From a virus (lineage: Duplodnaviria; Heunggongvirae; Uroviricota; Caudoviricetes), in the IMG/VR virus record IMGVR_UViG_2872192773_000007: a DNA stretch of 42,812 bases. One strand, 5' to 3'. Each line of letters opens with the position of its first letter. Within the stretch, counting starts at the first letter, position 1. This document shows, one piece after another, positions 18,111 through 20,818 of this stretch. A program made the translations under genes and the position numbers. Below the pieces are notes generated by a model that did no database searches, was not told where the DNA came from, and saw only the letters and a list, made by a program, of their open reading frames with translations.

Positions 18111-18463
18111 GTAATCCATCCAGGCCTGTTGTTGCAGAGCTTGGCGATGATTCAGGCTGGCATTTTTTCAGCCAGAGAAACCCGGATAACAGCATAGTGT
18201 TCACTGTTAACGGACAGGTAATTCCGTTAAATTACGGAAACTTCGATGCCCGCTATAAATATCGAACAGAGGGGGTACAGGATGTACGGTATGGCCATGA
18301 AATGTATTACAGCCCCGGCAGTAACACCGTTTCGTGGAGATTTTGCGCACCTTCGGGACACGGGCTGTCAGGGATGGCGATATCGGATACCGGCCGTAAC
18401 TCAGCGGATAACGTTGACGGTGTGTATTACCGACCACTGCAAAAACTGATTAATGGCACCTAG
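18111..18463 (+). pseudogene. side tail fibre protein, C-terminal fragment (5' end removed at IS600)
   Basis: ...DNVDGVYYRPLQKLINGT* typical of lambdoid Stf C-termini; begins mid-codon at the IS600 boundary. Confidence 0.5.
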
Positions 18464-18486
18464 TATAACGTAGCGAGTATTTAACA

Positions 18487-19031
18487 ATGTTGCATTTAAA
18501 AAATATTACTACGGGTAATCCGAAAACAGCAGAACAATATCAGATGACAAAACGATATTCGGTCACCTGGCTTTTTTCAGAAGACGGAAAAAACTGGTAT
18601 GAAGAGCTGAAGAATTTCGCCAGGACACAATTAAAATAACTTACACCGGAGACGGTCGCGTGGTGTGGGTCGGTAAGGATGTGACAGGCATTGAACCCCG
18701 TAACGCCAGTGTTATTGAAGTTCCTGATATTACCGCCAACCGCCGCATTACCGCGCCGGGTTACTGGTTTTACCGCAATGATGAATTTGTCTTTGACTAC
18801 AGACTCAAAGCGGAAGATGAGCGTGATGCCCTTCTGGCTCAGGTCAGTGCCCGGACAGGGGAATGGGAAGAAGACCTGTTGCTGGGGCTAATCAGCGACG
18901 AAGACCGGGAAAAACTGAAAGCGTACCGCATTTACGCGAAATCGCTGCAGGCGATGGATTTCAGTGTCATCACTGATAAAACCTCATACAACGCCATTGA
19001 ATGGCCCGCTTCTCCGGAAATTTCTTCCTGA
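18487..19031 (+). pseudogene. tail fibre assembly protein (Tfa), apparent frameshift near 18630-18660
   Basis: N-terminal [44 protein letters not shown] ends at a stop; C-terminal ...DITANRR...DEDREKLKAYRIYAKSLQAMD...IEWPASPE continues in another frame. Confidence 0.5.
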
Positions 19032-19054
19032 TTTAATTTATCGCGAGAAAAACT

Positions 19055-20244
19055 ATGTCTGTAGTGATATCAGGTGCGCTGACTGATGGCGCAGGTATCT
19101 CCATGTCCGGATACCATATTATTCTGAAATCCCGGGTAAACACCCCGGAAGTGGTGATGCACACTGTTGCTGATGTGATGACAGGAAACGATGGTGAATA
19201 CTGTTTCCATGCGCGGACTGGAAAATATGGTGTGTATCTGAAACAGGACTGGCACAACGAGTACAACGTTGGCGACATTGCTGTATATGAGGACTCAAAG
19301 CCCGGTACGCTGAATGACTTTCTGATTGCTCCTGATGAGGGCGACCTGAAACCAGATGTCGTCAAACGCTTTGAGGAAATGGTGGCGCAGGCGCAGCAGA
19401 GCAGGCCAAAAATGACATTGATGCTGCGCTGACCGGCACTCTGAAAACGGCTAACCATCTGTCTGAAATCGCAGCAGCAGGCGAAAAGGCACAACAGAAG
19501 TCCCGGGATAATCTGGGGCTGAAAAGTGCGGCCACGATGGAAGCACAGAGCGACATTTACGACCGGACAAAAGGCCGTCTGGCGATACCCGGCGCATTCG
19601 GCTTTGGGTGTGCTTTTCTGCCTGAAGATGTTATCCGTTTTGACACTAAGAGTGATTTCCTGGCCTGGGTAAGGAATGCGCTGCCAGGTGAATATTCCGT
19701 TGCTGGCCCCTACGGCATCATCATACCCGACACACGGTTTGAAGGGGTGCTCAGCATCCGGTGGACTGATGCACGCCCTGAGACAACAGAACCGCGGTAC
19801 AGAGCCAAATCCCTTACTTTTTACGGCATTAACGGCCCCATTTATCACACCCGCTACCGCTACTGGCCCATATCCAGACTGACTGACTGGGTGAAAATAA
19901 ATATAACCACAGAAGATATTATTTACAGAATCGTGGCGAGCTCTGTCCGCAACAGATGGGGAGACCCTGACATTGGCGGGCTGATTATTGCTGCGTACCA
20001 GGGAGAAGCTGACGGTGATAAAGTCATCAGACTTGTCAGGGGGCAGTCATACAGAGGCTCACGACTGGGACCGGTGGGGATTTCAGTGCCCAGTACTCCC
20101 ACCGGAACGTATATAGCATCCCCACAATTTTTCATTACGGGATGTTCAGAGCATTCATTACCGGGGTCATATTGCGCCCTGTCCGGGGTGCCGGATGCTC
20201 ATGTCTCTGGCGCAATGCCCGGGCTTTTTATTCGCACATCGTGA
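19055..20244 (+). pseudogene. side tail fibre protein, apparent frameshift near 19400-19440
   Basis: N-terminal Stf signature (VYEDSKPGTLNDFL) in one frame to 19432; body continues in a second frame to 20244. Confidence 0.5.
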
Positions 20245-20254
20245 GGAATGCACC

Positions 20255-20818
20255 GTGGAAATTAAAAAAATCATTAATCCCCGTTATACCGAAAGTGGCG
20301 CAGTAGACTGTGACGTTTTTTTTGACGACAGGGACCAGGCAGTCCCCTACACAGCCACCGCTGATGATGTCGCTCCGACGGGTCAGCAAATCTGGCAGGA
20401 ACTGCAAAGCGGCAAATGGGGTGAGATAGCCCCATTCACTGTGACACCAGAAATGCTGGAAGCGGCCAGAGAGGCCAGACGTCAGGAAATTGAAGCATGG
20501 CGCGCAGAACAGGAGGCGAAGCTGTTCACGTTTGAATGGAACGGTCGTATCTGGAATGCTGGTCCCGACTCACTGGGCCGCCTGTCCCCGGTAGTCATGC
20601 TGGCAAAATCTGTCACAGCACAAACACATATGGCGTGGAGCGATGCCGATAATCAGCAGGTGAAACTGTCGATGCCGGAACTGGAAGAACTGGCGGCAGC
20701 AATGGTGCAGGCGCAGGTCGATCGCAACGATGAGATTTATCGCCGTCAGCGGGAGCTGAAGGAAGAGCTGAATAGTCTGAAGGATTTGAATTCGGTTAGG
20801 AATTTTATCGTGGAATAA
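20255..20818 (+). CDS. tail fibre assembly protein (Tfa)
   Basis: GTG start after GAGGAA RBS; VEIKKIINPRYTESG...; a near-identical second copy lies at 37413-37976. Confidence 0.65.
   Translation: MEIKKIINPRYTESGAVDCDVFFDDRDQAVPYTATADDVAPTGQQIWQELQSGKWGEIAPFTVTPEMLEAAREARRQEIEAWRAEQEAKLFTFEWNGRIWNAGPDSLGRLSPVVMLAKSVTAQTHMAWSDADNQQVKLSMPELEELAAAMVQAQVDRNDEIYRRQRELKEELNSLKDLNSVRNFIVE

Follow-up and report, generated by a model that had tools for sequence, protein, structure and literature searches.

A stretch of viral DNA 42,812 nt long (IMG/VR record IMGVR_UViG_2872192773_000007; Caudoviricetes), referred to here as the window, contains at positions 18,111 to 20,818 the remains of a tail-fibre module. 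The module comprises the 3' end of a fibre gene of the Mu S type (fibre-1), a broken tfa gene, a broken second fibre gene whose product has a lambda Stf-type N-terminus (fibre-2), and an intact gene for a DUF4376 protein, which was found again 17 kb away. The region very probably represents the decayed right-hand ends of two related temperate prophages in a Shigella flexneri chromosome, one with the sit genes for an iron/manganese transporter as its cargo and the other with an ipaH effector gene. No fibre can now be built from the module, and as a fibre/chaperone module it is dead. The process is genome decay of an ordinary sort, driven by insertion sequences (IS), rather than a host-range switch. 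Cargo-bearing prophage remnants eroded by IS elements are a known kind, found in many public genomes, and only three aspects are mildly new: a cargo-linked junction within the DUF4376 gene, visible gene conversion, and a possible repeat-mediated loss of sit.

The module in intact relatives

Relatives were found by megablast against complete E. coli genomes and phages, after which their annotation was inspected. In phage phiP27, genes L54-L57 encode, intact and co-oriented, a Mu S-like fibre, Tfa, a fibre of the Stf-N type, and a DUF4376 protein, and this series ends at attR. The same intact module is present in a prophage of the porcine E. coli strain UMNF18, in a nearly complete prophage of enteroinvasive E. 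coli (EIEC) CFSAN029787, where sitDCBA follow directly, and in two prophages of EIEC VL40, each followed directly by an ipaH gene. In phiP27 and in all of these E. coli prophages, the late operon has the four genes at its right end, with order and orientation unchanged. An open reading frame (ORF) map of the window likewise places all four elements on the + strand.

The window module has a DNA identity of ~83% to that of phiP27 and 95-99% to those of the EIEC prophages, and the conserved sequence that follows the last module gene in phiP27 and related prophages is also the one found in the window. Unlike the phiP27-type modules, however, the module in the window has a truncated fibre-1 and a frameshifted tfa and fibre-2, and the other virion genes are gone. 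In addition, phiP27 has neither sit nor ipaH cargo after L57, unlike the remnants in the window. Family matches indicate that the module consists of an S/U-type fibre-chaperone pair, followed by a Stf-N-type fibre with a putative chaperone of the DUF4376 type. An earlier reading of this DNA, made from the letters and translations only (the sequence-only reading), had taken the tandem sets for host-range cassettes after recombination. Instead, the four-gene order is native to phiP27 and to EIEC and porcine E. coli prophages, and the two sets are different classes of fibre that the phage would carry together, not alternative cassettes. The same reading's identification of tail-fibre and chaperone genes does hold, given the matches to PF02413, PF08400, and PF14301, to PHROGs, and to Mu S; its order of elements and both lesions are also real, with coordinates and labels slightly corrected (Table 1).

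Lesions of the module

The damage to fibre-1 was located by alignment with the CFSAN029787 and VL40 modules, which shows that the end of a truncated IS600 cuts the gene near codon 286 of 410. The fragment that remains begins exactly at the IS600 terminus. In a PDB sequence search, the intact EIEC orthologue matches Mu 'Tail fiber protein S' (5yvq, E = 7.9e-56). Synteny with the EIEC prophage further reveals that 22.4 kb are absent between the phage tRNA cluster (to 13533) and the fibre-1 fragment (18206). These 22.4 kb hold the genes for lysis, terminase, head, sheath/tube, and baseplate. Since this structural block of ~22 kb upstream of fibre-1 is missing, the frameshifts are secondary and not the main damage; the earlier statement that the tail module no longer functions is thus correct, but it understated the loss. 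To the left of the gap, the early-right region of the sit prophage, its Q-like (DUF1133) gene, and its tRNA genes persist (5283-13531) and are collinear with the EIEC prophage, broken by IS2, IS1, and IS600.

The tfa and fibre-2 lesions were mapped against two intact references, again the CFSAN029787 and VL40 modules. Compared with intact orthologues, the tfa gene lacks 1 bp after 18623 (CCAG[C]GACAC) and is thereby split into ORFs of 50 and 123 residues. The base lost is one C from CCAGCGACAC, the C of GCG, where there is no homopolymer run. Repair of this base yields a protein of 181 residues that is collinear with the intact EIEC Tfa, a member of PHROG 136, 'tail fiber assembly protein'. 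Fibre-2 is split into ORFs of 125 and 235 residues. The PF08400 match lies on 19055-19432 and covers profile positions 1-116 of 134, and the N-terminal anchor domain is also the sole match of fibre-2 in a PDB sequence search. Here 79 bp have been lost after ~19392 from between 10-bp direct repeats (two copies of GCAGCAGAGC), the signature of a slipped-strand or microhomology deletion. An ORF of 422 residues results when the 79 bp are put back.

Both lesions are shared with other complete S. flexneri chromosomes, and at least 9 other complete chromosomes yield identical broken products. Gene calls in six complete chromosomes, deposited independently, include the same broken ORFs (50, 123, and 125 residues), and the exact 125-residue fragment of fibre-2 occurs on 9 chromosome-sized contigs (>1 Mb). 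Furthermore, window positions 17900-21100 are 100% identical to CP026772.1. A CTGA repeat within fibre-2 (19877-19880), which has its ancestral length in the window, is shorter by one unit (4 bp) in five of six sister S. flexneri genomes. Because these five have lost a further 4 bp, the decay of fibre-2 is ongoing and varies among strains.

The 675-bp repeat and the second remnant

Repeat finding and base-by-base comparison show that 20077-20751 and 37235-37909 match over 675 bp with a single mismatch, at 20569 (99.85% identity), which is far beyond chance. In the next 67 nt, which comprise the last 22 codons up to the stops, the two copies differ at 22 positions. The repeat of ~670 bp described earlier is thus confirmed with revised limits, as is the divergence of the tails. 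At its left edge, copy 2 abuts the IS-like helix-turn-helix fragment of the sequence-only reading, which is a truncated tnpA of the IS66 family. The tnpA is indeed fused in frame to the fibre-2 remnant, creating an ORF of 203 residues (36853-37464). DNA matches of 100% to annotated IS66-like TnpA stop exactly at 37234, the IS66/fibre junction has an exact match in the chromosome of S. flexneri SFBU1023, and the fused ORF is present in 35 index blocks, the longest contig of each being >1 Mb. The left edge of the repeat (20077/37235) is simply a break point beside the IS66 fragment. A candidate identity of this fragment (36771-37234) with the full IS66 insertion of the VL40 prophage at the pphA site was rejected as unsupported, there being no BLAST DNA match.

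Window positions 37235-41060 align without gaps, in collinear order and at 99.48% identity, with the end of the VL40 prophage that occupies the pphA site. In this stretch lie the fibre-2 3' end, the DUF4376 gene, ipaH3, the right end of the phage, and pphA. It follows that copy 2 is the orthologous stump of an ipaH prophage of its own and not a local duplication, and the 675-bp repeat is as much of the module as survives in both remnants.

The two copies are nearly identical because this segment is conserved throughout the phage family, with a small contribution from gene conversion. The fibre-2 3' end and the body of the DUF4376 gene are ~99% conserved across four EIEC/Shigella prophages (5-6 differences per 675 bp), and in most sister genomes copies 1 and 2 differ at four sites. 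Copy 2 of the window, however, has the copy-1 alleles at 37679, 37681, and 37683 (corresponding to 20521-20525 in copy 1), including a T specific to copy 1; at these sites it differs from five of the six sister genomes examined. In sister L009, each of the four differing sites of copy 2 has the copy-1 allele. Both in the window and in L009, these alleles mark short tracts of gene conversion between the direct repeats. In genome L011, copy 1 has 7 EIEC-like alleles, suggesting a third donor copy elsewhere in that genome.

Between the two remnants, the right end of the sit prophage meets the intR gene of a second Rac-type prophage. The att core at this junction (24840-24882) is a hybrid, as it matches both the attR and the attL sides of the EIEC prophage at the Rac site (ttcA). 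Beyond intR lie genes of a Rac-type left arm: gam (29519-29887), recE (31130-32554), and Rha (34998-35630). Together, the hybrid core and the intR gene, which is split by IS1, indicate that the sit prophage is joined head-to-tail to a second Rac-type left arm, as in a tandem double lysogen.

The DUF4376 protein

The sequence-only reading had labelled the gene at 20255-20818 an intact tfa. This label is wrong; PF14301 (DUF4376) is the sole match in the gene, with no match to Caudo_TAP (PF02413) at E <= 0.01, and the same is true of the ORF at 37413-37976. In both copies, the match covers residues 70 to 175 of 187, the C-terminal half of the protein. The protein belongs to PHROG 1141, which is filed under tail proteins. 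The copy-1 ORF has a GTG start with a GAGGAA ribosome-binding site ahead of it and begins 11 nt past the fibre-2 stop, a position that is the same in all intact relatives.

Alteromonas phage V22 provides the functional precedent. There, gp27, a DUF4376 protein encoded just downstream of the fibre gene gp26, is the chaperone of that fibre (PMC7289586, PMC10579305), and gp27 is the only protein of this kind for which a need in fibre folding and trimerisation has been shown experimentally (PMC7289586). The likeness of the module to gp26/gp27 consists of a small DUF4376 protein directly downstream of a fibre gene and of baseplate J-type and DUF2612 genes that precede the module in both phages (PMC10579305, PMC7289586). 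V22 is nevertheless distant: it shares the Pfam domain only, the fibre partner in the window has a lambda Stf-type N-terminus, and the chaperone role in enterobacterial phages is putative. The DUF4376 protein is probably the chaperone of fibre-2.

Sigma-70-like promoter sites were not found in 18000-21100, which argues that the ORFs that remain are silent. Although intact, both DUF4376 ORFs are most likely leftovers and silent.

Cargo and the phage right end

In each remnant, the cargo directly follows the module. The sit operon lies between the conserved right-end sequence and the att core, and window positions 19387-24882 are 99.4% collinear with the end of the EIEC prophage that carries annotated sitA-D. 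The ipaH cassette of the second remnant (37977-40141), whose VL40 counterpart is annotated ipaH3, is bounded by the DUF4376 stop and by a displaced copy of the right-end/hairpin sequence. Homology to the core chromosome begins at window position 40448 in all 5426 E. coli genomes, and pphA (40610-41059) is cut by an IS600 at 41060, leaving 149 of its 218 codons.

The last 67 nt of the DUF4376 gene exist as two types that differ at 22 of the 67 positions and show no variation within a type. In 18 of 18 sequences, the type tracks the cargo: every sit-linked copy, that of the intact EIEC prophage included, has the sit-type tail, and every ipaH-linked copy has the ipaH-type tail. The right edge of the repeat (20751/37909) is therefore a mosaic junction inherited with the cargo, and this cargo-linked junction marks a site of cargo exchange.

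The sit genes are located in a phage-related island. In S. flexneri, the locus is reported to be an ancestral one that has been lost sporadically (PMC4522646). Phage-borne effector genes are placed after tail-fibre genes near att (PMC3530523), and the ipaH islands of S. flexneri have been characterised previously (PMC4226921). As in those islands and effector loci, ipaH in the window is the immediate neighbour of the last tail gene and points the other way, with the phage right end and the chromosomal junction beyond it. There is no substantive difference; the present analysis adds only the left cargo recombination junction, within the last 22 codons of the DUF4376 gene.

The right-end segment is also present in other phages. 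In the Stx2 phage 1717 (L020, 3501-3759), its position is once more between attR and cargo genes on the minus strand. An unannotated segment of ~260 nt in many Stx-converting lambdoid phages has 81% identity to the hairpin region together with the last ~150 nt of the DUF4376 gene (window 20669-20938), and this segment looks like a conserved right-end piece common to phages with unrelated tails. It is conceivable, if rather doubtful, that the last ~22 codons of the DUF4376 gene and the hairpin right-end segment form a recombination 'socket' at which cargo (sit, ipaH, and other effectors) is swapped between phiP27-like myoviruses and Stx-type lambdoid phages, and that the recombinationally active 675-bp repeats also mediate loss of the sit interval. 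Activity of the repeats in S. flexneri is indicated by the visible gene-conversion tracts. As direct repeats, they flank 17 kb of DNA with sitABCD inside. If they recombined, sit would be deleted and a single hybrid DUF4376 gene would be left beside ipaH, which might explain the sporadic loss of sit (PMC4522646). No such product was present among the 9 chromosome-sized contigs (>1 Mb) examined.

Two further elements were seen in the ipaH remnant. An ORF of 59 residues (37976-38155) overlaps the stop of DUF4376 copy 2 (TAATGA); it is called in all sister genomes and has no Pfam match. A GC-rich hairpin with a T run (+ strand, ~38093-38125) comes after this ORF and just before the convergent ipaH stop.

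Alternative explanations

Might the tandem fibre sets be the relic of a Gin/Pin/Cin-type invertible host-range segment, like Mu G, P1 C, or the e14 P region, whose invertase has been lost? In Mu, P1, and e14, S/U-type fibre genes lie within invertible segments, and fibre-1 and tfa of the window do belong to the same S and U/Tfa protein families. Nonetheless, this is most improbable. Unlike those systems, the window lacks an invertase, crossover sites, and an alternative cassette in the opposite orientation. Both sets lie on the same strand, and set 2 (Stf-N plus DUF4376) is another fibre class rather than an alternative C-terminus for set 1; it would be expressed alongside the first set, not instead of it. 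Profile scans with Pfam or NCBIfam of the window's non-IS ORFs of at least 110 residues, plus a few shorter ones near copy 2, detected no serine invertase of the Resolvase family, in agreement with the sequence-only reading. No invertase is annotated in the intact relatives phiP27, UMNF18, CFSAN029787, and VL40 either, and the complete relatives reach attR or cargo directly after the DUF4376 gene. In and around the module there is no inverted repeat of at least 15 nt, the only one being 14 nt long with 86% complementarity. The search for crossover sites that the earlier reading had proposed used the gix/hix-like consensus AAACCNNGGTTT; it gave one 1-mismatch match in the window, at 7618, versus 1.6 expected by chance, and none in the module. 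It is no more credible that the frameshifts arose in assembly or sequencing and that the strain itself has intact genes. Errors in long-read assemblies commonly take the form of single-base indels, and the sequence-only reading had named homopolymer errors as the observation that would overturn it. However, one lesion is a 79-bp deletion flanked by direct repeats, the other is a C lost from GCG outside any homopolymer, and the same broken products are found in six complete chromosomes deposited independently, one of which is base-for-base identical over 17900-21100. The frameshifts are thus genuine, and fibre-1 and the upstream structural genes are gone in any case.

The sequence-only reading had also taken the repeat for a duplicated stf-3'/tfa segment whose 3' end diverged later. 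The repeat copies are in direct orientation 17 kb apart and, at 99.85% identity, are closer to each other than either is to its EIEC orthologues, as an intragenomic segmental duplication would predict. Yet such an origin is unlikely, as a separate EIEC prophage, largely intact and inserted at the pphA site, is collinear with copy 2 and with the 3.1 kb of unique sequence downstream of it (ipaH and the pphA junction). That prophage has an identical divergent tail, which is fixed by cargo type in every genome and was therefore inherited with the cargo. Moreover, the copies of most sisters differ at 4 sites, and the extra similarity in the window is explained by a short conversion tract. We also consider it improbable that the intact DUF4376 genes, and perhaps the fragments too, have been kept for a benefit to the host, such as stabilising or terminating the convergent sit and ipaH transcripts or another domesticated function. 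Both 187-residue ORFs are intact in 12 of 12 sister loci while the neighbouring genes are broken, both are convergent with virulence cargo, and a conserved hairpin sits between DUF4376 and sitD. On the other hand, the chance survival of a 564-bp ORF is unremarkable at 3 lesions per 2.7 kb, 18000-21100 has no promoter-like site, and the hairpin of copy 2 does not lie between DUF4376 and ipaH.

The reading that we favour, two decayed prophage right ends with silent leftover genes, has points that weigh against it. An IS-mediated origin of the large deletions would follow from the IS ends and fragments at the break points, which are its sole basis. The Rac-type left arm (28004-35864) and copy 2 may or may not once have been one prophage, since the IS fragments at 36710-37234 that separate them leave a shared origin possible either way. 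Read-through from IS600 may still reach the remaining ORFs. The chaperone role assigned to the DUF4376 protein would derive from V22 gp27, to which the homology is a shared Pfam domain, and a PDB sequence search with the DUF4376 protein returned nothing meaningful and no solved relative.

A probable course of events

The anatomy of the region, its lesions, orthology, linkage to cargo, and inheritance across genomes are established by the comparisons above, and from here we infer an order of events. Two related temperate phages would have lysogenised a Shigella/EIEC ancestor and later decayed. The intact phage type has a Rac/lambdoid early region and a contractile tail, with a late operon ending in a fixed four-gene host-recognition module: a Mu S-like fibre, a Tfa/U-type protein, a Stf-N-type fibre, and the DUF4376 protein. 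Cargo comes directly after the module in convergent orientation, sitABCD in one phage and ipaH in the other. The sit phage has lost ~22 kb of lysis, head, tail, and baseplate genes together with the 5' 70% of fibre-1, at a junction now occupied by IS600 and IS1 copies, and after this large loss would have acquired the 1-bp deletion in tfa and the 79-bp slipped-strand deletion in fibre-2. The ipaH phage has kept nothing that lay ahead of the last ~55 fibre-2 codons, where its break point abuts the truncated IS66-family tnpA.

Features of the window

Coordinates of the features are collected in Table 1. Several other observations concern the sequence to the left of the module. Downstream of the Q-like gene, four tRNA genes form a phage-type cluster (13223-13533): Met-CAU, Arg-UCU, Thr-UGU, and Gly-UCC. 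The EIEC counterpart has the annotation Ile, Arg, Thr, and Val instead. Between an integrase fragment (15012-15389) and the IS1 copy there are AT-rich tandem repeats (15695-15830), composed of TTAACTTAAAG-type units with periods of ~23-24 and 47 nt. At the start of the window (1-483), a gene for a LysR-family regulator is truncated by IS600 at ~436-483.

Table 1. Features of the two prophage remnants and their borders, in window coordinates.
Feature	Position	Strand	Evidence or remark
IS1 copy, truncating the adjacent IS600	16393-17161	+	repeat families I5, D8; matching records annotated 'IS1 family transposase'
Truncated IS600, 950 of ~1264 nt	17162-18111	+	repeats I4, D1; matching records annotated 'IS3-like element IS600 family transposase'
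Fibre-1, C-terminal ~117 codons, Mu tail fibre S-type	18111-18463	+	aligns with 3' end of 410-residue EIEC prophage fibre gene
tfa pseudogene, Caudo_TAP / Mu U-type assembly protein	18487-19031	+	PF02413 E = 5.4e-22 on the 123-residue 3' ORF
Fibre-2 pseudogene, lambda Stf-type N-terminal domain	19055-20244	+	PF08400 E = 6.3e-64
DUF4376 gene copy 1, intact, 187 residues, putative fibre-2 chaperone	20255-20818	+	PF14301 E = 1.2e-15
'sit-type' DUF4376 tail, last 22 codons	20752-20818	+	linked to sit cargo
Conserved phage right-end sequence, hairpin GCGGCACGT...ACGTGCCGC at 20827-20855	20819-20925	+	kept in phiP27, UMNF18, EIEC prophage
sitDCBA, right-end cargo of the sit prophage, convergent with tail genes	21019-24468	-	ORFs; collinearity with EIEC prophage
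Hybrid (attP-like) att core, right end of the sit prophage joined to intR of second Rac-type prophage	24840-24882		matches attR and attL sides
intR fragment, IS1-interrupted (with 26349-26694)	24941-25594	-	99.5% amino-acid identity to EIEC IntR residues 199-411; tyrosine recombinase matches
Truncated IS66-family tnpA	36771-37234	+	NF038385 E = 2.7e-53, profile positions 1-119 of 190
Last ~55 codons of second fibre-2 gene (copy 2)	37235-37402	+	identical to 20077-20244; collinear with VL40 fibre-2 3' end
DUF4376 gene copy 2, intact	37413-37976	+	PF14301 E = 2.3e-15
'ipaH-type' DUF4376 tail, last 22 codons	37910-37976	+	identical to tail of ipaH-linked EIEC prophages
ipaH, leucine-rich repeat + NEL E3 ligase effector, cargo of second prophage, convergent with tail genes	38156-39871	-	PF14496 (C-terminal NEL) E = 1e-76; PF12468 (N-terminal T3SS LRR) E = 1.6e-18
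Displaced right-end/hairpin copy, beyond ipaH cassette	40142-40260	+	repeat family D13, 79% identity to 20816-20886; alignment
Start of core chromosome: pphA upstream region and pphA	40448-41059	+	PRK11439 E = 2e-86, residues 1-149 of 218

Implications

The main value of the analysis is a correctly explained negative, namely that the window holds neither an invertible host-range switch nor a novel system. What its module shows instead is how prophages ordinarily end up in a host-restricted pathogen rich in IS elements. Both remnants have intact EIEC counterparts, so that the original phages with sit and with ipaH as cargo can be reconstructed. The sporadic loss of sit known from S. flexneri could plausibly have the repeats on either side of this locus as its substrate.

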